Below are positions 1 through 43,855 of a stretch of 60,129 nt of DNA, one piece after another (position 1 is the stretch's first letter; every line of letters starts with the position of its first letter). The stretch spans positions 1 to 60,129 of the forward strand of contig JAUYKA010000007.1 in NCBI GenBank assembly GCA_030698495.1, given 5' to 3'. The stretch is from a bacterium (lineage in GTDB: Bacteria > Patescibacteriota > Andersenbacteria > UBA10190). Below the pieces are notes generated by a model that saw only the letters and a list, made by a program, of their open reading frames with translations, had not been told where the DNA came from and made no database searches. The translations under genes were made by a program, and so were the position numbers.

Positions 1-102
1 TTGATACGGCTGTAGTGGTCGGCCTGGCGGCAGAAGTTCTTCTTAATAAGAAGTACAAAAAGCCGGCTTGCCGGCCGTAGCTCCGCCAGAGGCGGAGCGG
101 AG

Positions 103-186
103 GCCGGGGTGGTGAAATTGGCAGACACGTACGGTTTAGGACCTTATGTCCGCAAGGACGTGCAGGTTCAAGTCCTGTCCCCGGCA
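103..186 (+). tRNA. tRNA-Leu (anticodon TAG), class II with long variable arm, CCA not encoded
   Basis: Acceptor GCCGGGG/CCCCGGC, anticodon loop TTTAGGA, variable hairpin GTCC-GCAA-GGAC and T-arm GCAGG-TTCAAGT-CCTGT. There is one C/U mismatch in the anticodon stem. Confidence 0.8.
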
Positions 187-189
187 CCC

Positions 190-218
190 TTGACAAAATC
201 TTGTTTTTAGTATATACA
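190..218 (+). promoter_or_regulatory. sigma70-like promoter, TTGACA-17 nt-TATACA
   Basis: TTGACA lies at 190-195 and TATACA at 213-218, about 50 nt upstream of the ORF that starts at 266. Confidence 0.4.
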
Positions 219-265
219 TAAGCAGATCGGTTCTGACTTTTTCTGGGTGCGCCCCGACGGCACTT

Positions 266-1636
266 TTGGCAATGAAATACGAGGAGATTGCGATGGAGAC
301 TATGCTTGTGACCGGGTTGGTATCAGTGTGTGTGGTGGCAGTCTTTTGGCTGCTGATCTTCATCATTTGGTATCCCCTGTTCTTTTCTTCGCCCTTGCTT
401 CTGCCTGATGACAAGGGAAAGAAGAAGAAGAAAAGGCACCTACGAGATGAGACGAGACTGAAAGATGACCTGGAGGGTACAAAAGCTACGGTGGGAGTGA
501 ATATCGTCAGGCTAATAACACCAGATTCATCCGGAAGGGAAGACCGGGAAATCCTGGTTAATCTTGGTGTGGCGGAAAACCGTCGCGCCGATAGGGAGGA
601 CAAACCCTTGGAGGGCGATCACTGGTTGTGCGACGGCCGGCCATTGTGGCTGGCTGCTTTCCAGTTGGTGCCAATGTTGGCTATTGCTATGCCATTGGCG
701 CTCATCTTCGATGCGTTCTTCACACCGCTGATCGTTTTTGTGGCGGTGACCTTGGCGTGGATCCCCTTTTCCTGGTGGTCAGTTGAGGAGAACACCCGTT
801 TCGGTGTCCGGCGATTCGGCCGGCAGCTGAACGGGTATCTTAGACCGGGGTTAGTCTTTCTTGTCCCTTGGTTTGAGGTCGGCTATGTTGTGACCCTGCA
901 GAATTTCGTGTGGGGTCCGCGTGGGGGCGAGGATCCGAACGACGCATTTCACATCGGCGGAGCCATGGGTGACGGGCAAGGAAACCCGGAACCTGGCGTC
1001 TTCAATGTGATGCTCTTAGGCCGGTGGTCAATAAAGGTGGTGATAGCAATCACCGCCAGAGTCCGCCGGGCCAGAAAGCTGGCGTGGTATCGCTGGCTCA
1101 ACGACTATTCCAGTCCGGAAGACCTCGGCGAGCAGTTCGCAGCCGTGGTGGGCTCAATTACGAGCACCAAGGCCAGGGAGGTAGACTCGGAAGGTAGTGG
1201 CGACAAGGATGATCCTCGGCAAGCGTTTGAAGCTTTTCTGCGCTTCCTCAATAGAACACCGGAGATTTCCGGCTCAAGTCTATTGGCTCTGCAAGAGCTG
1301 GGCAGGGAGAGACTGGGCGGCGTTTTGCCGGTCAGCGTGGCGTTTGCCAATGTGATTCCGGGACCGGAGCTGGCCGGATTGCTTCAGCGTGTGGACGAGT
1401 CCAGTGTCGGCCGTCTGCAGGATCAAATGGCCGGCAAAGGAGTTGCCTTGTTACTCGACGAGATCGATGAGGCGATTCGTCGCGTGACGGGCGGACCAAA
1501 TCCGGAATTGGTGGCGGAGGCTTATCGGTTGTATATCCAACAACAGTTTGCTGGACAACCGAGCGGCCTCGAAGCGGTTATTTCCAGTCTGGCTGCGCAA
1601 TGGAGCCGGGCTACAACACGAGGAGATACGACATGA
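266..1636 (+). CDS. Multi-TM membrane protein with a divergent SPFH/band-7-like segment (start codon uncertain)
   Basis: 456-aa ORF with hydrophobic N-terminal helices and a KKKKKR linker. The stretch VRRFGRQLNGYLRPGLVFLVPWFE resembles the start of SPFH/HflK-C domains. The region is GC-richer than its surroundings. Confidence 0.5.
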   Translation: MAMKYEEIAMETMLVTGLVSVCVVAVFWLLIFIIWYPLFFSSPLLLPDDKGKKKKKRHLRDETRLKDDLEGTKATVGVNIVRLITPDSSGREDREILVNLGVAENRRADREDKPLEGDHWLCDGRPLWLAAFQLVPMLAIAMPLALIFDAFFTPLIVFVAVTLAWIPFSWWSVEENTRFGVRRFGRQLNGYLRPGLVFLVPWFEVGYVVTLQNFVWGPRGGEDPNDAFHIGGAMGDGQGNPEPGVFNVMLLGRWSIKVVIAITARVRRARKLAWYRWLNDYSSPEDLGEQFAAVVGSITSTKAREVDSEGSGDKDDPRQAFEAFLRFLNRTPEISGSSLLALQELGRERLGGVLPVSVAFANVIPGPELAGLLQRVDESSVGRLQDQMAGKGVALLLDEIDEAIRRVTGGPNPELVAEAYRLYIQQQFAGQPSGLEAVISSLAAQWSRATTRGDTT

Positions 1637-2694
1637 TAAGACCAGGGCCTGCCGGAAAAGGACGAAGCGGGGGCAAGACGCCCTCGCAGCGGAAACCGTC
1701 ACCGGGTAATGCCGGTAGCGGTACGATGCCTCCGGCTGCGACGACGTCGACGTCCAAGAAGGTCTCGGTTGGCCAGGTGGCTATCTGGATCATGCTTTGT
1801 CCGTTGGTGCTGCTTGTGTCTGTGTTTTGTATGTGGGTTTTGTGGTTGTTTGTCCGCTGGATTTTTACGCCAGCGGCGGCTCCCACCAACCAACCGCAGC
1901 AAACGCAAGCGGCGGAGCAGCCGACGGCATCGGCGGTTCCCGCCAAGAAGGCGGATCCGGCGAAGTGCGTCGAGGAGGTTTGGCAGAAGCTGCGCTATGT
2001 CAGCAACTGCCGCCTGACGCGACTTCAGGAGGAAGTCACGGTGACGTACAATCCCAAGCGGGACGGTCAGATGAAGGCCGTCGACTTGGGAAGCTGCCTG
2101 AAGGCGACGGAGCAGATCGTGTCCGGCCGAAAGGGCAGCCACCTGGCAACGTTCTGCGAGCCGTATCCGCCGGCACAGTTGGAGTTGTGCAATCGGACCG
2201 GCGAAGGAGCGGTGTCACTTAAAGACAACTGGCGCTATGGGCTGACTGGCTGTGGGGAGCTGGTAGCGCTGCAATGGAATAGCAGTGCGCCATCTCCGGA
2301 CGTTACGTATCGTGTAAACATTTTGCACGTGATCTTGGATGATCATAGAGATGTTGTGCACGATAAAGCCGGTGGAGTGCCGGTGCTGCAGGTTATCTGC
2401 CACAATTTGCCGGCGGAGCGCATTTTCCATGTGCCGCTGCCGGCGAAAGTGGGTGACACCGCGGTCAGTTATGACATGGAAGTCAGGCTGATTGACCGCC
2501 ACGGCAGACACATTCCGCAGGAAGCGGGACACAGCCTTTTCGTGGCAGCGGGAAACAGTGTGGAGCTGGCTAACGGTCCACATTGGCGTGGTCACGTAGC
2601 GCCGGGTGACGGGATTTTTGTGGCAAAGATTGCCCACAACTACCCCGACGGCGTTGACGTGCTTCTGGCTGTCAGGCCAGAAATTGTACCTTGA
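1633..2694 (+). CDS. Hypothetical membrane-anchored, Cys-containing extracytoplasmic protein
   Basis: ATG at 1633 is preceded by AGGAGA (1621-1626) and overlaps the upstream stop as ATGA. The protein has a basic N-terminus, one TM helix and a Pro/Gln/Ala linker. I recognised no family motif. Confidence 0.55.
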   Translation: MIRPGPAGKGRSGGKTPSQRKPSPGNAGSGTMPPAATTSTSKKVSVGQVAIWIMLCPLVLLVSVFCMWVLWLFVRWIFTPAAAPTNQPQQTQAAEQPTASAVPAKKADPAKCVEEVWQKLRYVSNCRLTRLQEEVTVTYNPKRDGQMKAVDLGSCLKATEQIVSGRKGSHLATFCEPYPPAQLELCNRTGEGAVSLKDNWRYGLTGCGELVALQWNSSAPSPDVTYRVNILHVILDDHRDVVHDKAGGVPVLQVICHNLPAERIFHVPLPAKVGDTAVSYDMEVRLIDRHGRHIPQEAGHSLFVAAGNSVELANGPHWRGHVAPGDGIFVAKIAHNYPDGVDVLLAVRPEIVP

Positions 2695-2700
2695 GAGTTC

Positions 2701-2755
2701 AAGCCCCTTTTCTTTTTTGCAGCTTGCTGCGAAAGAGAGAGGGGCTTGTTTTTTA
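2701..2755. terminator. Long GC-clamped hairpin with T-run, positioned between convergent genes
   Basis: AAGCCCC...GCAGC-TT-GCTGC...GGGGCTT followed by TTTTTT. It sits between the + gene ending at 2694 and the - gene ending at 2753. Confidence 0.65.
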
Positions 2756-2980
2756 TCCGGTGAAGTATGGGGCGACAATGTTGAAGATGGAGGCGACCAG
2801 ACCGATGAAGACCAGGGCAACAAGTAAGCGCAACATGATCCATTGGAGACGGTCACGTACGGGCGTGTCGCCATAGTTATAGGCGTATTTGGCTCCGGCC
2901 TGCATCATCCAGATAACGATTATAAAAGAGAGAAGAAGCAGAATGGCGTTGACGATGATGTTTATGGATTCGAAGGACAT
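2753..2980 (-). CDS. Small two-TM protein, short relative of the pilin-like family (no signal peptide)
   Basis: 75 aa with two hydrophobic helices separated by the loop AGAKYAYNYGD. It lies at the distal end of the pilin-like array. Confidence 0.4.
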   Translation of the reverse strand: MSFESINIIVNAILLLLSFIIVIWMMQAGAKYAYNYGDTPVRDRLQWIMLRLLVALVFIGLVASIFNIVAPYFTG

Positions 2981-3307
2981 TTATTTAGTAGAAAGTAGAA
3001 AGTAGCAGGTAGTAAGCAGTAAGAATATTATGATTTTAGTATACTGGATTTTAGGTATTTTGACTGCGGGTAAAATAAGTGGCGATGCAAAAAATGATTT
3101 ATTATTTATCGAAGTCGTTGTAAGTTAATCTAGCGGCATACTTTATAGAGCTATGAATATTAGGAAGTTTGTGTACACATATGTCATGCCGGGCTCCGTA
3201 TCAAGTACGGGACAGGCCCGATCCGGCATCCAGTGCATACGTTCTGGATTCCGGATATTTTGCCACAAGCAAAATTCCGGAATGACGAAACTTAATATAA
3301 GTTCATC

Positions 3308-3338
3308 AAAAAAACTCCCGGAATTTGGGAGCTTTTTT
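3308..3338. terminator. Bidirectional intrinsic terminator
   Basis: AAAAAAA-CTCCC-GGAATTT-GGGAG-C-TTTTTT, immediately downstream of the minus-strand gene 3357-3704. Confidence 0.6.
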
Positions 3339-3356
3339 GATAATAATTCAATTCGA

Positions 3357-3704
3357 TTAAGCTCCTTGAATGGCGCCAACAACGAAGTTGACGACCGCAG
3401 CGGCCAAGCCGATAACGATTAAGCCGAGAACGGCATACAGAATGGTGTTTTTAGCTTGAGATGATTGATCTTCGTCACCTTGGGAAAAGATATAACGGAA
3501 GCCGCCAAGAATGAGGAACACGACCGCGGCTAAAGCTGCCAATATAAGTAAACCATTGAGCAGGAAGGTGACGGCGTTGACTAACGAGTTTTGCGCCGTG
3601 CCTTGCGGAGCGGGAACTGTGGTAAGACCTTGCGCCAGGACAATGCCCGGAAGGGCTAACAGAGAAACCGGCGATAAGTGTTTAATGGTTGAGCGGATGT
3701 TCAT
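3357..3704 (-). CDS. VirB2/TrbC-like (T4SS-pilin-like) small membrane protein
   Basis: 115 aa with a signal-like N-terminus, a TM helix, the loop GGFRYIFSQGDEDQ, a Lys-rich turn and a second TM helix. The 3' 75 nt are near-identical to 3828-3902. Confidence 0.7.
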   Translation of the reverse strand: MNIRSTIKHLSPVSLLALPGIVLAQGLTTVPAPQGTAQNSLVNAVTFLLNGLLILAALAAVVFLILGGFRYIFSQGDEDQSSQAKNTILYAVLGLIVIGLAAAVVNFVVGAIQGA

Positions 3705-3785
3705 GTGCTCCTCACCTCCTTTGAAGTTAGATTATTAAGTTTTACTTGTTTTATTATAAACGAAGTAGGAAATTTAGTCACTTAC

Positions 3786-4880
3786 TTATCCGTAAGGCAG
3801 ATTATTGCGAACAATCGCCCAGAGGACGAAGTTGACGACCGCGGCGGCCAAGCCGATAACGATTAAGCCGAGAACGGCATACAAAATGGTGTTTTTAGCT
3901 TGGGCGGAAGCCTGTTCATCGCCTTGAGAAGCGATGTAACGGGCGCCGCCGATTATAATAAAGACGATAGCCCCCAGGCCGACTAGAACCATCAGAACAT
4001 TAAGGGTTGTCCAGATGAGGCCGGGCAGATTGGTAACTCTACCGACTACAGCTTCGTTAACAAAGGCAACGATAGCGGCGGCAAAACCGGTAACGAGCAA
4101 ACCGAGCACGGCGTACAAAATGGTGCGTTTGGCGGTGGCGCTTTTCTGTTCATCGCCCTCGGATGTAATGTACTGGACGCCGCCGTAGATAATAGCTATC
4201 AGAGCAGCCAAGCTGACCAAAACCAAGAAGACGTTGATGATGGTTAGAATCATGTCGGGTAAGGCCATCGTTTCGCCTCGAATAGCGCCGGCGGTAAAGA
4301 CAACGATGGCGAAGGCCAGGCCGACAATGATAAGGCCGGCGACGGCATAGAGGACCGTGCGCTTCCCCTTGGCGGCTTGTTGTTCATCGCCGCCGGATAT
4401 CATATATTGCACGCCGCCATAGATAATGGCGGCGAGATCAATAACAGCAATGAGGGCCAAAAAGACTTTGATAATAGTGAATATCATGTCGGGGAGTTTT
4501 GTGGTTCTGCCTTTCAGGGCACCGCCGGTGAACTGAACAATAGCGGCAGCCAAACCAACGATAAGCAAGCCGACAACAGCAAATAAAACAGTACGTTTTC
4601 CCTTGGCGGCTTGTTGTTCATCGCCGCCGGATATCATATATTGCACGCCGCCATAGATAATGGCGGCGACAGCTATAACGGCTATTAAGGCTAGAAAAAC
4701 ATTAATAATAGTTTGCAGGATATTGGCGAGTGAGCTCGGTTGGCCGTCACCGCATTGCAGTCCCAGGGTGCCGCAGTCGGCATCAGGAAGAAGATCAAGT
4801 TGAGCGGCGGCGGGGAAAACAGTTATTGCTAGTGCGGTTACAGCCAGAGTGAAGATGGTGGATTTGACTATGAATTTCAT
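3786..4880 (-). CDS. Four tandem pilin-like modules fused in one 364-aa polypeptide
   Basis: Signal peptide plus four units of (TM - GGVQY[MI][IT]S[GE]GDEQ - KxKRT[VI]L - TM). The period is 234 nt, and a 69-nt block is identical at 4367-4435 and 4601-4669. Confidence 0.7.
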   Translation of the reverse strand: MKFIVKSTIFTLAVTALAITVFPAAAQLDLLPDADCGTLGLQCGDGQPSSLANILQTIINVFLALIAVIAVAAIIYGGVQYMISGGDEQQAAKGKRTVLFAVVGLLIVGLAAAIVQFTGGALKGRTTKLPDMIFTIIKVFLALIAVIDLAAIIYGGVQYMISGGDEQQAAKGKRTVLYAVAGLIIVGLAFAIVVFTAGAIRGETMALPDMILTIINVFLVLVSLAALIAIIYGGVQYITSEGDEQKSATAKRTILYAVLGLLVTGFAAAIVAFVNEAVVGRVTNLPGLIWTTLNVLMVLVGLGAIVFIIIGGARYIASQGDEQASAQAKNTILYAVLGLIVIGLAAAVVNFVLWAIVRNNLPYG

Positions 4881-4950
4881 GTTTGTGGTTAGGACTATAA
4901 TAAGATATTTTACACCCTTGCGCCTAAACGAGCGACACTACTTGATATAA

Positions 4951-5376
4951 TTATGGTGCTTCAAAGAAAATACCCAAGACAACGTTAACTACTATAGCAG
5001 AGATACCGATAATAATAATACCGGCAACGGCGTACATGATAATTTTTTTGGCGGTGGCGCTTTTTTGTTCATCGCCGAGAGATGTGACATACATCACGCC
5101 GCCCCAGATAACAGCGATGACAGCAACAAAGGCTATAACCGCCAACACAACTTTTATAATTTCTACGGCTAATTCGGAAAAACTGTTGAATTTTTTGACT
5201 TGCGCGTCCTGGGTTTGAAAAGTATCGACTTTGTCGAAGCCGGTACCGAAATCCACCGACAATTTTACCGGTGCGGTTGGTGCGGATAAAACTGGCTGGA
5301 CATTAAATACGCTGAATAAGAGAATAGTAATAATTATTTTGGCAAAAGCAACGTATGGTATAGTGGCGGCTTTCAT
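4951..5376 (-). CDS. VirB2/TrbC-like pilin-family protein
   Basis: 141 aa with a signal peptide, a divergent N-terminal part and the core WGGVMYVTSLGDEQKSATAKKIIMYA followed by a TM helix. Confidence 0.7.
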   Translation of the reverse strand: MKAATIPYVAFAKIIITILLFSVFNVQPVLSAPTAPVKLSVDFGTGFDKVDTFQTQDAQVKKFNSFSELAVEIIKVVLAVIAFVAVIAVIWGGVMYVTSLGDEQKSATAKKIIMYAVAGIIIIGISAIVVNVVLGIFFEAP

Positions 5377-5422
5377 GGAGTTTTATAAACCTAGCTAAGC
5401 ACGGTAAGAAGGATAACTATGA

Positions 5423-6001
5423 CTACTTGAGCGTTGGAAAGTCTTTGGTGGGGTCATAGTTTTTAAGCGGGTCGTTGTCATTGTTGATAGGAATATCTGG
5501 ATTGGCAACTTCTTCGGGACTGTATGGTTTAACAGAAGGCGATGGCGTAGAAGATGCAGCCGGCGTATTGCCGCTGCCAAGGAATATGGTAATCAACACA
5601 TTTACGGCAACGGCTGATATGCCGATGACAAGCAATCCTATGATTGCGTAAAATATAACTTTTTTGGCCGTCCCGCTTTTCTGGTCGTCGCCTAGCGATG
5701 TGATATACATGACTCCGCCCCAAACCAGAGCTCCGGTAGCAATAATGGCGACTACGGCCAAAGCGATTTTCAAGATAGCCACGGCCAGTTCGGCAAAATT
5801 GTTGTATTTTTTTATACCAGAAGAGGGTTGAAGATTACTGACGTTGTCGAATATTGAATTATAGGCAGATGATTGTTGTGCCGGTGCTGCAGCTTGTGCA
5901 GTAAAAGCCGGCAAAATTCTACTGACACAAAACACATCGGGAAATATTATAGCAGCTGTAATCGCAATAGAGATTAAAGTTGTGCGGCTGTAACCATTCA
6001 T
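5423..6001 (-). CDS. VirB2/TrbC-like pilin-family protein with a Pro/Ser-rich C-terminal tail
   Basis: 192 aa with the core WGGVMYITSLGDDQKSGTAKKVIFYA and an extra ~50-aa C-terminal extension. Confidence 0.65.
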   Translation of the reverse strand: MNGYSRTTLISIAITAAIIFPDVFCVSRILPAFTAQAAAPAQQSSAYNSIFDNVSNLQPSSGIKKYNNFAELAVAILKIALAVVAIIATGALVWGGVMYITSLGDDQKSGTAKKVIFYAIIGLLVIGISAVAVNVLITIFLGSGNTPAASSTPSPSVKPYSPEEVANPDIPINNDNDPLKNYDPTKDFPTLK

Positions 6002-6006
6002 AAGAA

Positions 6007-6369
6007 TTATGGATTAGCCAGAAGAGTTTTTAGGGTAGAGATTATCAAGAAGGACACCCCGACGACGACAACACCGATAATGGCATAAAAAATAATTTTT
6101 TTAGCCTTGGCGGCTTTGTTTTCGTCACCCAGAGAAGCAATATACATGATGCCGCCCCAGATTAGCGCGGCCAGGGCGATAATGGCGACTAGGGACAACA
6201 GCCAGTTGATGGCATTGCCGATAACGGTGATGGCGTCCAGTTCCGGTAACCCGAAGTTTAATTTATCGATACCCAGATTAGTTTGCGCAAAAACATCGCC
6301 GGCGGCAGATTCCAGAAGCGCAAGTACTGTAGTGGGGATGATGAATTTTTTAATTTTGGAAAAAGACAT
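6007..6369 (-). CDS. VirB2/TrbC-like pilin-family protein
   Basis: 120 aa with a signal peptide and the core WGGIMYIASLGDENKAAKAKKIIFYA plus a TM helix. Confidence 0.7.
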   Translation of the reverse strand: MSFSKIKKFIIPTTVLALLESAAGDVFAQTNLGIDKLNFGLPELDAITVIGNAINWLLSLVAIIALAALIWGGIMYIASLGDENKAAKAKKIIFYAIIGVVVVGVSFLIISTLKTLLANP

Positions 6370-6380
6370 AACTTATGAAT

Positions 6381-6767
6381 TTAGGGAGTGAAAATTTGTA
6401 ACATTTCGGTCAGTTCAATAATTATCGTGTAAGACAATGCGATGACAATAAGACCAACAATAGCCCAAAATATTATTTTTTTAGCGTGCTGGACGCGATT
6501 ATCGTCGCCTAGTGAAACAACATACATTATTCCTCCCCAAATCAGAGCCAGGAGTGCCAGAAGGCCGACCAGGCCGAGAAGCCAGTTAATAATGTTCTGC
6601 AAAAATAGCTCGATTTTAGTGACACTACCTAATGGATTAGTAAAGCCACTAGAAGATCCTGGCCCGCCTGGATCAACTACTGGTCCTGCCAAAACTATAT
6701 TTGAAGTCGTAATAAGGAAAAAAAACAAAGAAAAAAAGATGATACTGACAATACGTGTAGGTTTCAT
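6381..6767 (-). CDS. VirB2/TrbC-like pilin-family protein
   Basis: 128 aa with the core WGGIMYVVSLGDDNRVQHAKKIIFWA. Its start overlaps the stop of the upstream SBP gene as ATGA. Confidence 0.7.
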   Translation of the reverse strand: MKPTRIVSIIFFSLFFFLITTSNIVLAGPVVDPGGPGSSSGFTNPLGSVTKIELFLQNIINWLLGLVGLLALLALIWGGIMYVVSLGDDNRVQHAKKIIFWAIVGLIVIALSYTIIIELTEMLQIFTP

Positions 6768-8047
6768 TGGGCTGGGGTTAGGTTATTAATCTGCTCCTCG
6801 GCTTGGCGTAGGGCGTCTTCGCTAGTTGCGGCGCCGGTGACAACGTTGTCGATGGCGGCATTCAGGATGGTGTCAACAGCAGCGCTGTCGAAGCGCGGCC
6901 AGCTTTGGGCGGTGATAGCCTGTTCGGCGAAAACGCCGATACTAGCATCACGTTGTAATTCTACCACACTATCGCGGCGGGCGGGCGGAGTCAGAGCAGC
7001 GCGATTGATAGAATCGGACGGATTCTTGCTGGTCAAAAAGCGGACGAAATTCCAGGCCATGTTCGGTGAGCGCGAAGAGTTGGAAACAGCGAAAGGCCAG
7101 TAGGAGGCGAAATTCACGCGGTTGGAATCGGAGCTGCCGGCGATTTGGGGAATTTCGGCGACACCAAAATTAAGGCGGGGGTTTTTGGCTTTGATGGTGG
7201 GGACGCTGTAAGAGTAATTAAACATGACGGCGGTTTTGCCGGCGGCAAAGGCGTCGATGGAGTAATCTTGCTGGAGGTTCCAGGTGTAGACTTTCTTGGA
7301 CTTGTTAGCGAAGTCGGTATAAAAAGTCAGAGCGCGAGCGCCGATATCGTTATTGATGCTCACTTTGTTATTTTGGGCGTCAAAAATAGACAGCCCGCTT
7401 TGCATCATTAACAGCTGGAATATATCGGAGGCGCGATTAATATTGCCGGCGGTGCCAAGAGCGGCGGCGCTTTGTTGGATAGTGCCGAGGCGATTGACTT
7501 TGGTGACACGCTCAATCATTTGTTGAAAATCCGTCCAGGTGCGCGGGGGGCGGGCAATGCCGGCGGCGTTGAGCAGGTCTTTATTGTAATACATGGCCAA
7601 GGTGTCGACGGACGAAGGCAGGGCGTAAACTTGCCCGCCGCGAACCAAGTCGGCAGCGGCAACATCAACAAACTCATCGCGGACGGCGCGTTCGTCAATG
7701 ATGTTAGCGGGCGCCGGAGTCATAAGGCGCTGTTTGTCATTGACCCAGTTGTGATGAATAACAAAAACATCGGGACCGCGGCCTTCGGCTAAAGCGGATA
7801 GTAAGTCGCGTTCGTAGGTGGCGACGGAAGCGATTTTTTTATAGGTGACTTTAGTGCCGTATTGTTCGGCAAAGGCTTTAAGGACGGGTTCCATATCGGC
7901 GCTTTCCTGCCACAACCCCCACACAACCAGTTCTCCGGTGGATTGGTCGACAGCGGTGTTTTGACGGCAGCCAAAGCCGGATAAGGCAAAAACGCCGGTT
8001 AAAAGCAGGACAAGGGCGGGCAACTTAGATGATAATGCCTTGAACAT
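6764..8047 (-). CDS. Extracellular solute-binding protein (ABC-type, sugar-family like)
   Basis: 427 aa with an N-terminal signal/lipobox-like LSGFGC. The overall pattern (VWGLW..., YNKDL, FANKSKKVYTWN) is typical of family-1 SBPs. No permease or ATPase gene is adjacent. Confidence 0.75.
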   Translation of the reverse strand: MFKALSSKLPALVLLLTGVFALSGFGCRQNTAVDQSTGELVVWGLWQESADMEPVLKAFAEQYGTKVTYKKIASVATYERDLLSALAEGRGPDVFVIHHNWVNDKQRLMTPAPANIIDERAVRDEFVDVAAADLVRGGQVYALPSSVDTLAMYYNKDLLNAAGIARPPRTWTDFQQMIERVTKVNRLGTIQQSAAALGTAGNINRASDIFQLLMMQSGLSIFDAQNNKVSINNDIGARALTFYTDFANKSKKVYTWNLQQDYSIDAFAAGKTAVMFNYSYSVPTIKAKNPRLNFGVAEIPQIAGSSDSNRVNFASYWPFAVSNSSRSPNMAWNFVRFLTSKNPSDSINRAALTPPARRDSVVELQRDASIGVFAEQAITAQSWPRFDSAAVDTILNAAIDNVVTGAATSEDALRQAEEQINNLTPAQ

Positions 8048-8056
8048 AACAGAAGT

Positions 8057-8620
8057 TTATTCGGCTGATTTGCCGGTGACTTTAAGCACCAGGCTGTAGT
8101 GGTAGGGACTGGGAGCAAAGTCTTTGACTAAGCTCAAACCGACTGTTTGCGCGATCGACAACATGGTTTCTTTTGAAAAGCGCTGTCCCGCAGGCGGACC
8201 AAGCGGCGTGGCCACAACATCCCAAACAACCACTACCACACGGCCGTTCGGTTTTATCAAACGCTTGGCTTCGGTTAAGATTTTTGCCGGATCGGACTGG
8301 TGTAGTATGTTGGCAACTAACACCCAGTCGGCGTTGCCAGCAGGCAAGGTGCTGCCTTGGTTTTTTTCCAGGTCAGCGCGGACGGTATGAATGACACCGG
8401 CAACCTGTTCGCGCTGGGCGCGGTTTTCCGATTCGGATAATAGATGTGTCATGACATCGACACCAATAACGCTGCCGCTTTGGCCAACAATTTTGGCGGC
8501 GGGAATTAGATAAAATCCCGCCCCGGAGCCTAGATGAACCACACGCTGTCCGGCCTGCAAGCCAAGACGGCGCCAAAATTCTTCGGGACGAATGAAGGAA
8601 GAGGAGTTATTTACTGACAT
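8057..8620 (-). CDS. Class I SAM-dependent methyltransferase
   Basis: 187 aa with the motif I-like sequence VVHLGSGAGFY and an acidic post-I residue (IGVDV). Confidence 0.7.
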   Translation of the reverse strand: MSVNNSSSFIRPEEFWRRLGLQAGQRVVHLGSGAGFYLIPAAKIVGQSGSVIGVDVMTHLLSESENRAQREQVAGVIHTVRADLEKNQGSTLPAGNADWVLVANILHQSDPAKILTEAKRLIKPNGRVVVVVWDVVATPLGPPAGQRFSKETMLSIAQTVGLSLVKDFAPSPYHYSLVLKVTGKSAE

Positions 8621-8786: not shown

Positions 8787-11285
8787 CTACTCCCCTATCC
8801 AGCTGGTGAAGGCGGCGACTTTACCGCTTTGCGGTGTGGGGCGCATAACACGTACACCCTGGGTAGCACGACCGAGCGAGCTGACACCGGCGGCGTCAAT
8901 ACGAATGACTTGGCCTTTGCCGGAAATAATAAAGAGATCGGTGGTGCTTATCTTGTCGGAAGCCAATACGGAAGCGGTAACAATGGCACCGGTTTTGGCC
9001 GTTACTTTGGCGGTTTTTATGCCGGAGCCGCCGCGTTTTTGCCGGCGGTATTCGGTTAACTTAGTGCGTTTGCCGTAACCCTCTTCGGTAATCACTAGAA
9101 CTTCCTGGGCTTTAGCGACGTCGGCGGGAATAACATGCATAGATACAACGTTGTCATTTTTCTTTAAGTGGATGCCGCGTACACCGGCGGCGGTTCGCCC
9201 CATAGGACGAACGTCTTTTTCGGAAAACCGAACCGCTTGACCGGCGGCGGTAATCAGCAGGATTTCGTCTTTACCGGTGGAAATGGCGACCCATTCCAGC
9301 GTATCGTCGTTCTTGATGTTGATTGCTTTTAGACCGGAGCGGCGGATGTTAATAAAATTCTGCCGGGAAGTCTTTTTTACCAAACCTTGTTTGGTGGCCA
9401 TGAACAGGTATGCCCCCGATTCATCGGCACTGGGCAGAGCTTGAACGGCGGTGACTTTTTCGCTTGGTCCCAGCTCAAGAAAATTCTGCAGCGCCTGTCC
9501 TTTGGCGGTACGGGTGGTAGCGGGGATTTCATAAGCTTTGATAGAAAATACGCGTCCCTGATTGGTAAACAATAACAGCTCCTTATGAGTGGTAGTGGCC
9601 AAAAAAATCTCAACCACGTCTTCTTCTTTGGTGGTCATCCCCCTAACGCCTTTACCGCCGCGTCCTTGGACTTGGTAGGTGGAAGTAGACAGTCTCTTGA
9701 TGTAGCCGCCGCGGGTGACGGTAACGATAGTGGGGTCGTCGGGAACAAGATCTTCCTGGGAAAAGTCCCCGACTGGCTGACTAAAAACACGCGTGCGGCG
9801 ATCGTCGCCGTATTGAGCTGATAGGTCGGTATAGTCTTGCTTTATCATGCTTAGAACCTTTTTGGGGTCGCGCAAAATGCTTTCCAGTTCGTGAATAAGG
9901 CGGCGTTTTTCTTTCAGTTCGTCTTCTATTTTTTTCCTTTCCAAACCGGCCAATGTTTGCAGGCGCATTTCCAAAATAGCAGTCGCTTGAGCGTCGCTGA
10001 AACGAAATTGCTTGCGCAGGTTAATATGGGCGGTTTCTTTAGTGTGACTTTTCTTAATAGTGTCGATAACCCGATCGATATGATCAAGCGCCTTACTTAA
10101 GCCTTCCAATATATGCGCTCGGTCGCGCGCGCGGTCCAGTTCAAACTGGGTGCGGCGAGTGATGACAATTTGGCGATGATTGATGTGTTCCTGTAAAACT
10201 TCTTTAAGACTCAACACTTTGGGCTGCCGACCTTCATCCACGAGGGCAATCATATTGACGTGGAATGTTTTTTGCAGGTCGGTTATGGAAAATAGCCGGT
10301 TGAGAACTTTTTTGGGATAGGCTTCTTTTTTTAGCTCGATGACGACTCTAATACCATCTTTATCGGATTCATCGCGAATGTCTTTGATGCCTTCAATTTT
10401 TTTGTTTTTAACGGCGTCGGCGATTTTTATAATTAGCTGGGCCTTATTCACAAGATAAGGGATTTCCCGGACGATAATGCGATGCTGGCCGGTTTTGTAC
10501 TCTTCGATATCGGCTAAGGCACGCATTACTACACTGCCTTTGCCGGTAGCATAGGCTTGAAGGATCTCCTGTTTGTTATATATAGCCGCGCCAGTGGGAA
10601 AATCAGGACCCTTAATATATTGCATTAAGGTCTCAACAGTGGCATTCGGTTTGTCTATTAAATGAATGGCGGCGGCACAAACTTCGCGTAAATTGTGAGG
10701 GGGAACAGTGGTTGCCATGCCGACGGCAATACCCAGCGTGCCGTTAACGATGAATTGAGGGATAGCGGATGGCAACACCGCCGGTTCTTTTCTGGTGCCA
10801 TCGTAATTGTCGCGCATGTCTACCGTGTTTTTTTCAATGTCCAACATAATTTCGTCGGAAATTTTTGCCAGCTTAGCTTCTGTATAACGCATAGCCGCGG
10901 GTGAATCACCATCAATACTCCCCCAGTTGCCTTGGCCAGAAATGAGCTCGTAGCGCATGGAAAAATCTTGCGTTAAACGAGCCAGGGCATCATACACGGC
11001 AATGTCTCCGTGGGGGTGATATTTACCAAGAACGTCTCCGATAACGTGCGCTGATTTGCGGTACTTGGCTGTAGAACGAAGCCCTTGTTGCCACATAGAG
11101 TATAGGATACGTCGAGCGACTGGTTTCATACCGTCGCGTACATCCGGTAACGCGCGTTGGACAATGACGCTCATGGCATAGTCCAGGTAGCTTCGCTGTA
11201 TTTCAGCAGACAATCCTTGCTGAATTAATTTGCCAATATCAGAATGACTGCTGCGTTCCGGCGCCGGTTGAATCTTTTTAGGCAT
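8787..11285 (-). CDS. gyrA: DNA gyrase subunit A
   Basis: 832 aa. It has the N-terminal sequence ...AMSVIVQRALPDVRDGMKPVARRILY, the catalytic AAMRYTE motif and C-terminal beta-pinwheel repeats. Confidence 0.97.
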   Translation of the reverse strand: MPKKIQPAPERSSHSDIGKLIQQGLSAEIQRSYLDYAMSVIVQRALPDVRDGMKPVARRILYSMWQQGLRSTAKYRKSAHVIGDVLGKYHPHGDIAVYDALARLTQDFSMRYELISGQGNWGSIDGDSPAAMRYTEAKLAKISDEIMLDIEKNTVDMRDNYDGTRKEPAVLPSAIPQFIVNGTLGIAVGMATTVPPHNLREVCAAAIHLIDKPNATVETLMQYIKGPDFPTGAAIYNKQEILQAYATGKGSVVMRALADIEEYKTGQHRIIVREIPYLVNKAQLIIKIADAVKNKKIEGIKDIRDESDKDGIRVVIELKKEAYPKKVLNRLFSITDLQKTFHVNMIALVDEGRQPKVLSLKEVLQEHINHRQIVITRRTQFELDRARDRAHILEGLSKALDHIDRVIDTIKKSHTKETAHINLRKQFRFSDAQATAILEMRLQTLAGLERKKIEDELKEKRRLIHELESILRDPKKVLSMIKQDYTDLSAQYGDDRRTRVFSQPVGDFSQEDLVPDDPTIVTVTRGGYIKRLSTSTYQVQGRGGKGVRGMTTKEEDVVEIFLATTTHKELLLFTNQGRVFSIKAYEIPATTRTAKGQALQNFLELGPSEKVTAVQALPSADESGAYLFMATKQGLVKKTSRQNFINIRRSGLKAINIKNDDTLEWVAISTGKDEILLITAAGQAVRFSEKDVRPMGRTAAGVRGIHLKKNDNVVSMHVIPADVAKAQEVLVITEEGYGKRTKLTEYRRQKRGGSGIKTAKVTAKTGAIVTASVLASDKISTTDLFIISGKGQVIRIDAAGVSSLGRATQGVRVMRPTPQSGKVAAFTSWIGE

Positions 11286-29100: not shown

Positions 29101-29814
29101 ATGGGTAGGAGATGGCCAAGACTAAAGAGAGCAGAAAATCAGAAGTGGACGGTGGATTTGGCTTATGCTTGCGGTCTTCTGGCTACGGACGGTTCTTTAT
29201 CCAAAGATGGCCGACATATAAACTTGACCTCAAAAGATATCGAACAATTAGAAACATTCAAGCGCTGTCTTGGGCTAACAAATAAGATTGGCTGGAAAAT
29301 AAGCGGGTATACCGGAAAGATGAATTCGCAAGTTCAATTTGGAAATGTTGTTTTATACAGATGGTTGGTTTCGATAGGTATTGGCCCTCATAAAACAAAA
29401 AGTATTGGCGTTGTGAGGATTCCTGATGAATATTTTTTTGATTTTCTGCGGGGTGAATTTGATGGAGATGGATCCTCTCATGCTTATTGGGATACGCGTT
29501 GGCATAGTAGTGTTTCGTTATATATTCAGTTTGTCTGTGCTAGTAAGTGCCATTTAGAGTGGCTACGTACCACCGTTTTTCGTTTAATTGGGTCACGTGG
29601 CGTAATGGGCAAAAGCCGTAGTATTTTTCAATTAAAATTTGCGAAGACACAAGCGCTTCCTTTGTTTGAATCTATGTATTACAGCGGAGATATCCCATAT
29701 TTATCTCGAAAGAAAGAAAAATTAGATCGTCAATGGACGGCATTAAAACAGTCCAAATTGGGAATACTCCCCGAAGGATTTAATCGTAATGGTTCAATTA
29801 TCAAGATAGCTTGA
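29101..29814 (+). CDS. LAGLIDADG homing endonuclease (double-motif)
   Basis: 237 aa with the motifs LAYACGLLATDGS and FLRGEFDGDGS. It ends 35 nt before tRNA-Leu(GAG). Confidence 0.8.
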   Translation: MGRRWPRLKRAENQKWTVDLAYACGLLATDGSLSKDGRHINLTSKDIEQLETFKRCLGLTNKIGWKISGYTGKMNSQVQFGNVVLYRWLVSIGIGPHKTKSIGVVRIPDEYFFDFLRGEFDGDGSSHAYWDTRWHSSVSLYIQFVCASKCHLEWLRTTVFRLIGSRGVMGKSRSIFQLKFAKTQALPLFESMYYSGDIPYLSRKKEKLDRQWTALKQSKLGILPEGFNRNGSIIKIA

Positions 29815-37313: not shown

Positions 37314-37368
37314 ATAAAACTTATAGGGTATACGTTTAGGATTATGAATAATGTACTATTACCTTTTA

Positions 37369-37377
37369 TGGTATAAT
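37369..37377 (+). promoter_or_regulatory. Extended -10 element TGG-TATAAT, 7 nt upstream of the HNH gene's ATG
   Basis: TG lies at 37369-37370, TATAAT at 37372-37377 and ATG at 37384. This implies a leaderless transcript. Confidence 0.45.
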
Positions 37378-37383
37378 TTAAAG

Positions 37384-37863
37384 ATGGGTAGTCGAAGATC
37401 TTGGACAGCTAGCCAACTTAAAAGCGCTGTAAAAACATCATTGAGTTACCGTCAAGTAATAGAAAAACTTGGTCTTCGCCCAGCGGGTGGTAATTATTAT
37501 CAACTTCAAAAGTATGTTAAGGAATATGGACTTGATACTTCTCACTTTAAGGGTAGCGCTTGGAATAAGGGGTTGAAAGGAATTGGGAAGCCGCGTATAA
37601 AGATTAAAGATATCTTAGTTAAGGGAAGTACTTTCCAAAGCTATAAGCTAAAACAAAGGCTATTTAAAGAAAATCTTAAGCCTCAAAAATGTGAAATTTG
37701 TGGCTGGTCAGAACGAACATCTACTGGTCATTTGCCACTTGAAGTTGATCATATTAATGGTGATAGAACAGATCACAGGCTTAAAAACCTGAGAATTCTT
37801 TGCCCTAATTGTCACAGTTTGACTCCTAACTATAGATATCGTAGAGGTAAGAGTAAAAAATAA
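37384..37863 (+). CDS. HNH homing-type endonuclease
   Basis: CEICGW...LEVDHINGDRTDHRLKNLRILCPNCH (an HNH/zinc motif). The ORF could extend to 37351, but the -10 box lies inside that extension. It ends 3 nt before tRNA-Leu(TAA). Confidence 0.8.
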   Translation: MGSRRSWTASQLKSAVKTSLSYRQVIEKLGLRPAGGNYYQLQKYVKEYGLDTSHFKGSAWNKGLKGIGKPRIKIKDILVKGSTFQSYKLKQRLFKENLKPQKCEICGWSERTSTGHLPLEVDHINGDRTDHRLKNLRILCPNCHSLTPNYRYRRGKSKK

Positions 37864-40416: not shown

Positions 40417-40426
40417 GTGTGATGTG

Positions 40427-40498
40427 TGGGCCCGGCAGGGGTCGAACCTGCGACCACGCGCTTATAAGACGCGCGCTCTACCACTGAGCTACGGACCC
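40427..40498 (-). tRNA. tRNA-Ile (anticodon TAT)
   Basis: The reverse complement reads GGGTCCG...GAGC-G-CGCGT-CTTATAA-GCGCG-TGGTC-GCAGG-TTCGACC-CCTGC-CGGGCCC-A. Confidence 0.82.
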
Positions 40499-43429: not shown

Positions 43430-43855
43430 TTACAGATCGTCTCGCTTGATTAGGTTCTGGCGCATAATTGTTTTGATCGCATCAACGGTCTGGTCTTTTA
43501 CTTTGGGGTTGCTGGCGGCTACCCAGGTCGCGAAGTTGTATAGTTCTTGATTATCAATGCGCAGCCACTTGCCATTTTTATACAGGAAGTAGAAGAGAGT
43601 CATGATGGCCACTCGCTTGTTGCCGTTTTGAAAAGGGTGATTTTTAATCATCACATATAACAGCATTGAAGCTTGTGCTACCAAACCGGGATATAAAGAT
43701 TTTTTGTCATAGCGGGCGGTAGGTACAGCCAGACATTGCTCAAGTACACCGGGGAAGCGAGTGTTAAAAGAAGGGATTGGCTCGTTCCAGCGCATTAATT
43801 CCCTGGCTAGTTGGTGGGCGACGTATTCTACTTCTTGGATGCTAAGATAGTACAT
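43430..43855 (-). CDS. doc: Doc/Fic-family toxin
   Basis: 141 aa with the motif HPFQNGNKRVA (Doc-type HxFx[DN]GNKR). Confidence 0.8.
   Translation of the reverse strand: MYYLSIQEVEYVAHQLARELMRWNEPIPSFNTRFPGVLEQCLAVPTARYDKKSLYPGLVAQASMLLYVMIKNHPFQNGNKRVAIMTLFYFLYKNGKWLRIDNQELYNFATWVAASNPKVKDQTVDAIKTIMRQNLIKRDDL

Follow-up and report, generated by a model that had tools for sequence, protein, structure and literature searches.

A tandem array of PF18895 pilin-like genes, one of them a four-module fusion, behind the gene for a probable sugar-binding lipoprotein in an Andersenbacteria-type genome

Positions 1–60,129 of contig JAUYKA010000007.1 (assembly GCA_030698495.1, from a bacterium of the Andersenbacteria lineage) were analyzed as one stretch, hereafter the window, and hold at 2753–6767 of the minus strand seven head-to-tail open reading frames (ORFs) with ten hairpin modules, nine of them canonical and one divergent. 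In our reading, these genes form a pilin array of the T4SS_pilin family (PF18895) that probably supplies a type IV secretion system (T4SS) encoded elsewhere in an Andersenbacteria-type genome. We consider it very likely that the array belongs to a kind already known from Patescibacteria, and we give even chances to the actual formation of a pilus. What is new here is that such arrays consistently come after the gene of a putative sugar-binding lipoprotein, a link for which no mention was found in the literature that we searched.

Along the minus strand, the array opens with pilin 1 (6381–6767, 128 residues), followed by pilin 2 (6007–6369, 120 residues), pilin 3 (5423–6001, 192 residues, with a 50-residue C-tail rich in Pro, Asn, and Asp), pilin 4 (4951–5376, 141 residues), a four-module poly-pilin (3786–4880, 364 residues), and pilin 6 (3357–3704, 115 residues), which is the last canonical pilin and has a strong Shine-Dalgarno sequence (AAGGAGG). 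These six genes are separated by 5–81 nt, and a 376-nt AT-rich gap precedes the terminal gene for a divergent hairpin protein of 75 residues (2753–2980). For all of them, 'pilin' is an annotation and not a demonstrated property. There are nine copies of the motif GGxxY[IMV]xSxGD[DE], four in the 364-residue ORF and one in each of five other genes, and hydropathy segments mark two hydrophobic helices per module. By a rule-based scan, each of the six longer proteins has a signal-like N-terminal segment with an AxA-type site at residues 24–37. In the alignment of the nine modules, the invariant positions are G31, G32, Y35, S38, G40, D41, K49, A55, and G58, and outside the conserved hairpin core, the exposed N-terminal segments and the C-tails vary in both length and sequence, the tail of pilin 3 being an example. 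Accordingly, the seven paralogs, the module architecture, and the divergent exposed parts around a conserved core, all of which had been described in the original prediction, are present as claimed, with the leaders found in the six longer proteins. The prediction overlooked that the 364-residue gene has four modules fused, which brings the total to ten.

A hidden Markov model (HMM) of the nine modules gave scores of 102–112 bits for the modules themselves, far above chance, and no match to any ORF of the 60 kb outside the array. Here, the highest similarity is found between modules that are neighbors on the DNA, with identities of 50% for pilins 1 and 2, 60% for pilins 3 and 4, 74% for the first two modules of the poly-pilin, and 63% for poly-pilin module 4 and pilin 6. 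In the poly-pilin, one signal peptide stands in front of motifs at residues 77, 155, 233, and 311, a strict period of 78 residues or 234 nt, with modules at approximately 4509–4742, 4275–4508, 4041–4274, and 3807–4040. As the 234-nt repeats are merely 60–80% identical at the DNA level, they represent diverged tandem duplicates, and an assembly artifact is excluded. The array genes thus arose by tandem duplication, with one lineage-specific amplification having been fused into the four-module protein.

The closest named relatives of the window GyrA, at 70–75% identity, all come from Candidatus Andersenbacteria, a class of the Patescibacteria or candidate phyla radiation (CPR), which agrees with the CPR-type host that had been suspected. 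Throughout the related loci, the conserved order is LactB3, a small ORF, GyrA, a methyltransferase, a solute-binding protein (SBP), 3–7 pilins, and a small hairpin gene, beyond which lie two or three uncharacterized genes on the opposite strand. This order was recovered from pilin-, GyrA-, and SBP-seeded look-ups alike, a single-protein scan of genome contigs having returned five loci, and so the check on synteny that had been suggested finds the array at the same place in relatives. Moreover, pilin 1 is the positional orthologue of the first array pilin in every relative (48–52% identity), the four fused modules and the last pilin of the window all have the last pilin of the relatives as their best match, and the nearest relative of each window module is always a paralogue from the window itself, ahead of all orthologues. 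This pattern points to an ancestral array of about four pilins and one leaderless hairpin, expanded here to nine modules plus one. We also noticed that the contig of locus L008 (CAZHXI010000004.1), titled 'uncultured Gammaproteobacteria bacterium', carries a Patescibacteria-type SBP-pilin array with its neighbors, and that bin may be misclassified.

As for family membership, all six longer genes pass the gathering cut-off of PF18895 (26.6 bits) with 29–128 bits, namely 46.3 for pilin 1, 42.9 for pilin 2, 29.4 for pilin 3, 31.6 for pilin 4, 127.7 in four stretches for the poly-pilin, and 46.1 for pilin 6. Membership of these six genes, and with them of nine modules, is therefore solid. In 85 close relatives, PF18895 was matched by 85, TrbC/VirB2 (PF04956) by 49 at E ≤ 1e-3 (best 5e-8), and T4SS_CagC, the family of the Helicobacter CagC pilin, by one, and the T4SS-pilin link that had been drawn from the module architecture is upheld by these profile searches. 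With the NCBIfam model for Mbov_0395 pilin-like proteins (NF045849; cut-off of 40 bits), the four-module protein scored 91.9 bits and the single-module proteins 18.7–36.9 bits. The AlphaFold2 model of the 115-residue pilin 6 (mean pLDDT of 87.1) has a signal helix and two further helices (residues 41–72 and 78–114) joined by a five-residue SQGD turn, and these helix positions place the conserved motif across the turn, from the last part of helix 1 to the first part of helix 2. Each module is therefore predicted to be an α-helical hairpin with the conserved motif forming its short turn.

Two other assignments were rejected. For type IV pilus pilins, there is no class III signal (G|F/M-x-x-x-E), each module has two helices, and no type IV pilus family of Pfam is matched in the window. 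For a rotary ATPase c-subunit, PF00137 gives no match even at E ≤ 1, and the conserved acidic residues are in the turn (GD[DE]) and not in helix 2.

Arrays of this kind are well represented in the Patescibacteria. Quinonero-Coronel et al. (2025; PMC12102498) searched 3,035 genomes of this phylum with PF04956 and PF18895 and found VirB2-like pilins together with VirB4 in 1,948 assemblies, with the pilins near virB4 in 1,135 and away from it in 813 (about 40%), and they recorded 441 arrays of 2–11 pilin genes in 383 assemblies, an array being two or more PF18895 or PF04956 genes that are in tandem or have a single gene between them. In their Table S1, VirB4 is given for six of the nine Andersenbacteria assemblies examined, including GCA_001817055.1 (PMC12102498), whose GyrA protein we found on contigs that carry the same detached array. 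Furthermore, the six-pilin array in the T4SS cluster of Southlakia epibionticum ML1 is essential (Wang et al., 2023, PMC10633639; reviewed in PMC12857230), and the Patescibacteria T4SS with VirB2-like pilins is one of a small number of systems with a demonstrated essential role in epibiotic growth (PMC11665869). In a Saccharibacteria locus (L006), we observed a pilin array, one protein of which has two modules, abutting a VirB4-like ATPase, PrgI, and a TrbL/VirB6-like protein. Separately, paralogous VirB6-like proteins of 1163 and 1227 residues (L006, 6428–9919 and 16842–20525; 34–36% identical over about 350 residues) flank the pilin array region of that locus.

The window array resembles the published Patescibacteria arrays in combining PF18895 with a weaker TrbC/VirB2 signal, in its tandem divergent genes with signal peptides, in its phylum, and in a gene count within 2–11. 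By way of difference, it sits not in a T4SS cluster but in a gyrA-methyltransferase-SBP operon, one of its genes is a four-module fusion, and a leaderless hairpin gene closes it. In addition, its modules are 28–74% identical, as against a published array mean of 25% and maximum of 54%, and Andersenbacteria is not singled out for arrays in that survey, whereas Microgenomatia and Saccharimonadia are named (PMC12102498). With VirB2, TrbC, and TraA (PF04956), the window proteins share a signal peptide and a pair of hydrophobic helices linked by a short charged turn, though they fall under the Pfam cut-off, have no adjacent VirB4, VirB5, or VirB6, and belong to a monoderm host. The tandem virB2 paralogues of Bartonella and Anaplasma offer another likeness, as there too a pilin gene was amplified and diversified, which is proposed to vary the exposed surface (as cited in PMC12102498). 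However, those arrays lie within or beside the virB operons of diderm intracellular pathogens, and neither fused pilins nor an SBP partner are reported there. Lastly, the Mbov_0395/MMCAP2_0565 proteins of mycoplasma integrative and conjugative elements are likewise small two-helix modules in a wall-less or monoderm setting, but unlike the window array they are carried by such elements and accompany a conjugation system.

In the mechanism that we propose, the pilin precursors would be exported by Sec and have their signal peptides removed, leaving each hairpin embedded in the membrane, its two termini facing outward and its basic turn facing inward, in the manner of VirB2, TrbC, and TraA. The hairpins would then make up a subunit pool that is recruited by a monoderm-type (MPF-FATA-like) VirB4-type T4SS, encoded elsewhere on the chromosome, which would build a pilus or conduit from them. 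Here, the variable N-terminal segments and C-tails would present alternative surfaces for host-cell contact. A role in a host-contact apparatus, as raised by the original prediction, would be in line with current published speculation.

Immediately upstream of the array, and on the same strand, is a gene for a MalE-like carbohydrate SBP of 427 residues (6764–8047; SBP_bac_1/SBP_bac_8), whose stop codon overlaps the start codon of pilin 1 (ATGA). Because of an N-terminal G-x-G-C (residues 24–27) that is invariant in five orthologues, the SBP is a probable lipoprotein, and its closest solved relatives are trehalose/maltose- and acarbose/maltose-binding proteins. No ATP-binding cassette (ABC) permease lies beside it in the window or in the loci of relatives. 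Just upstream follows the gene for a class I S-adenosylmethionine-dependent methyltransferase of 187 residues (8057–8620, minus strand; Pfam Methyltransf_31/11/25), and upstream of this is gyrA (8787–11285, minus strand, assigned by Pfam).

Whereas a profile search of a protein database with the SBP alignment returned only close Andersenbacteria SBPs, an SBP-seeded metagenome scan broadened the sample to 80 loci (L016–L095) with SBPs of 35–63% identity. Downstream sequence of 600 bp or more is available for 64 loci, of which 51 have a pilin module on the same strand no more than 600 nt 3' of the SBP, and a further eight have one 1.2–5.1 kb downstream, in some cases as the C-terminal module of a large protein. 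By comparison, none of the 80 loci has a pilin module in the upstream flank of the SBP (346 kb scanned). In 48 of 52 loci, the gene that immediately precedes the SBP is a methyltransferase homologue (median gap of 75 nt, identities down to 29%), and gyrA is upstream in 39, LactB3 also being in the block. Since GyrA in these metagenome loci is merely 52–59% identical to that of the window, the gyrA-methyltransferase-SBP-pilin block must be old. About nine loci are without the gyrA-methyltransferase context (six have an NTP-transferase gene in its place), and of these all with enough downstream sequence keep pilins right after the SBP. Because the unrelated gyrA and LactB3 are retained in the same block, part of the SBP-pilin adjacency may be inherited gene order. 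That the SBP and pilin genes stay paired where the upstream context differs argues for a functional tie. With the Saccharibacterial queries for VirB4, PrgI, and the VirB6-like protein, no match was found in the SBP-seeded loci, though such queries may miss very divergent homologues.

Fused modules like those of the poly-pilin are not peculiar to the window, although the assembly index has no exact record of the 364-residue protein. Searched against 1.84 billion representative proteins, the 364-residue sequence matched 20,728 clusters at E ≤ 1e-3, and the best 150 of these matches (P0245–P0393 among them) have 1–10 modules per chain and most often three, a ranking that favors multi-module proteins since four modules are present in the query. 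In close relatives, the same locus has ORFs with four and six modules (L017, 3023–4174; L018, 3468–5174). Single chains with 2–10 tandem hairpin modules hence appear to be common and widespread, and the literature searched on these arrays makes no mention of fused pilin modules. In the AlphaFold2 model of the window poly-pilin (mean pLDDT of 72.7), a signal helix is followed by eight long helices. We considered a polyprotein whose module junctions are processed by signal peptidase, as those of the window contain AGA|IRG-like sites. However, this idea was not adopted, as the linkers in 16 related multi-module proteins (8–35 residues, rich in G, P, A, S, and T) have no common cleavage motif, and the multi-module chains may well stay intact. 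Some arrays open instead with large ORFs (L005, 4064–6682 and 6686–7732; L021, 9089–10411 and 11027–12889; L076, 9370–10899) for proteins of 348–872 residues, those of L021 and L076 being 441–621 codons from stop to stop. These have one C-terminal pilin module and a long N-terminal region with no Pfam match, and they could be pilins with a displayed domain.

Several observations weigh against a pilin array that serves a distant T4SS. A Pfam search of about 50 ORFs over the 60 kb found no VirB4, VirD4, VirB6, relaxase, or type IV pilus ATPase, and tblastn of the window with Saccharibacterial VirB4, PrgI, and the VirB6-like protein gave no match, as the earlier statement that no machinery lies nearby would have it. 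We infer the T4SS of the window organism from its relatives, the 60-kb contig being what was read of its own genome. In Table S1, three of the nine Andersenbacteria metagenome-assembled genomes examined are without VirB4, these being drafts (PMC12102498), and no pilus has yet been seen for PF18895 proteins (PMC10633639; PMC12857230). Against TrbC/VirB2 PF04956 (cut-off of 27.9 bits), pilins 1, 6, and 2 of the window reach 26.6, 25.3, and 21.7 bits, respectively, at E values of 7e-6 to 2e-4 and with nearly the whole model covered. Homology to the classical VirB2/TrbC is thus supported at the family level and is borderline for the window proteins themselves. Moreover, unlike VirB2, TrbC, and TraA, the window proteins have no similarity to solved pilins by profile or by Foldseek. 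The profile of the 85 relatives found no solved T4SS pilin among all PDB chains, its only match being Stannin (E = 0.43). Foldseek against the PDB gave no match at E < 0.25 and no T4SS pilin in the top 50, those of the F, pED208, and T pili included, the matches being generic hairpins or bundles such as the ATP synthase c subunit (1a91, E = 0.98) and ESCRT-III. Hence, of the suggested structure prediction for monomers, the hairpin itself is confident, while the comparison returned only generic hairpins, as this helical fold is too simple for Foldseek to discriminate. Finally, the classical pilin model predicts neither fusions of 2–10 hairpins per chain nor a tight link to an SBP gene instead of VirB4. 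That said, a window free of machinery corresponds to the common detached arrangement and is no evidence for a machinery-free system.

Building on the SBP link, one could imagine, albeit with low expectations, that outside Saccharimonadia the PF18895 arrays belong not to a virB4 cluster but to a module of methyltransferase, MalE-like lipoprotein, and pilins, in which the lipoprotein would be the missing adhesin or receptor and the poly-pilins would be pre-assembled blocks of a filament or conduit. If so, the SBP lipoprotein would recognize glycans in the cell wall of the host or else capture sugars that are imported.

The same gene pair also permits a doubtful alternative, somewhat less credible still, in which the hairpins and the co-transcribed MalE-like lipoprotein would form an envelope device independent of any T4SS, such as a membrane ring, pore, or anchor for glycan capture or uptake, with no extracellular pilus. 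The overlapping SBP stop and pilin start, the pilins that come after the SBP in 51 of 64 loci and never upstream, and the pair that is kept when NTP_transferase replaces gyrA and the methyltransferase would all suit such a device. So would the lack of an ABC permease next to the SBP, the lack of any VirB4, PrgI, or VirB6-like match in the SBP-seeded loci, and the common covalent fusions of 2–10 hairpins, which recall the fused c-subunits of rotary ATPases. Yet much of the adjacency may be inherited order, given that the unrelated LactB3 and gyrA are kept in the same block, and no ATP-synthase c or transporter family is matched at the Pfam cut-off. The pilin family is also homologous to TrbC/VirB2, and in Saccharibacteria its members occur inside an essential T4SS cluster that has no SBP.

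We regard as very unlikely the autonomous surface filament or adhesion system suggested by the original prediction, in which variable subunits would be assembled with neither T4SS nor type IV pilus machinery. What speaks for it is that the exposed segments are variable and that no machinery lies in the 60 kb, nor T4SS families at distances of up to 10 kb from the array in seven Andersenbacteria loci. However, going by the VirB2/TraA systems, no mechanism is known by which two-helix hairpins could be drawn out of the membrane and polymerized unless a VirB4-type ATPase is present. The claim of independence from such machinery is also not supported, as the related array of L006 is physically linked to a VirB4-like ATPase, the published pilins are often far from virB4, and most of the Andersenbacteria genomes examined (six of nine in Table S1) have VirB4 (PMC12102498). 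Least credible of all, and rejected, is the view of the small proteins as substrates or effectors that Sec exports and a T4SS releases, which was the early proposal for the Nanosynbacter lyticus TM7x array of small signal-peptide genes, first described as Sec-exported small proteins and likened to pertussis toxin subunits (McLean et al., 2020, PMC7427843), since each mature protein consists almost wholly of a pair of long hydrophobic helices and lacks a soluble domain, the sequence family is that of the pilins, and the TM7x array has since been reinterpreted as VirB2-like pilins (PMC12102498).

The window adds an Andersenbacteria example of a detached array within the Patescibacteria, which account for much of the bacterial diversity that is still uncultured. 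For the function of the T4SS in these bacteria, the SBP that is translationally coupled to pilins in many lineages gives one handle and the deeply conserved gyrA-methyltransferase-SBP-pilin block a second, suggesting testable pilin partners beyond VirB4. A third handle comes from the natural fusions of 2–10 pilin modules per chain, which constrain subunit packing.

At its 3' end, the array closes with the 75-residue protein, which scores 21.6 bits with the module HMM (residues 6–72). It lacks a leader, the exact motif, and an evident Shine-Dalgarno sequence, and its gene lies behind a terminator-like hairpin (3303–3343, minus strand; 17-pair stem and T run, a consensus match only) that is directly 3' of the gene for pilin 6. 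The protein has no match to PF18895, and its match to the NCBIfam Mbov_0395 pilin-like model (E = 0.002) is under the cut-off. Orthologues of 72–86 residues (37–43% identity) are found at the same array end in Andersenbacteria relatives, and we take the gene to encode a divergent member of the pilin family. In the 376-nt gap, Rfam gave chance-level matches only, and elsewhere in the window it found only tRNAs. Another terminator-like hairpin (2705–2744; 18-pair stem and T run, again only a consensus match) separates the gene from the convergent ORF 1600–2694.

The left end of the window (1–2700) differs in composition, with a G+C content of 0.56 versus about 0.47 in the array, and has two overlapping plus-strand ORFs (266–1636 and 1600–2694) that belong to no Pfam family. 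The second of these is kept beside the array in locus L002, and in place of the two, relatives have an SPFH/Band_7 protein together with an uncharacterized membrane protein. On these grounds, the opposite-strand neighbors were ruled out as T4SS parts.

In the remainder of the window, the Pfam search detected only housekeeping and envelope genes, which include those for GyrA, an S1 protein, a P-type ATPase, NusA, an H+-translocating pyrophosphatase (H+-PPase), trigger factor, ClpP, RNase Y, FtsH, SMC, and a MacB/HlyD efflux set. Two free-standing ORFs that resemble homing endonucleases are placed among tRNA genes (29101–29814 and 37351–37863), a LAGLIDADG-type ORF being just before tRNA-Leu and tRNA-Val and an HNH-type ORF between tRNA-Cys and tRNA-Leu. 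A small Fic/DOC-family ORF of 141 residues (43430–43855), flanked by short ORFs of no family, could be part of a toxin-antitoxin-like pair. A tRNA-Ile gene with the anticodon TAT (40426–40498) adjoins a divergent tRNA-Val gene.

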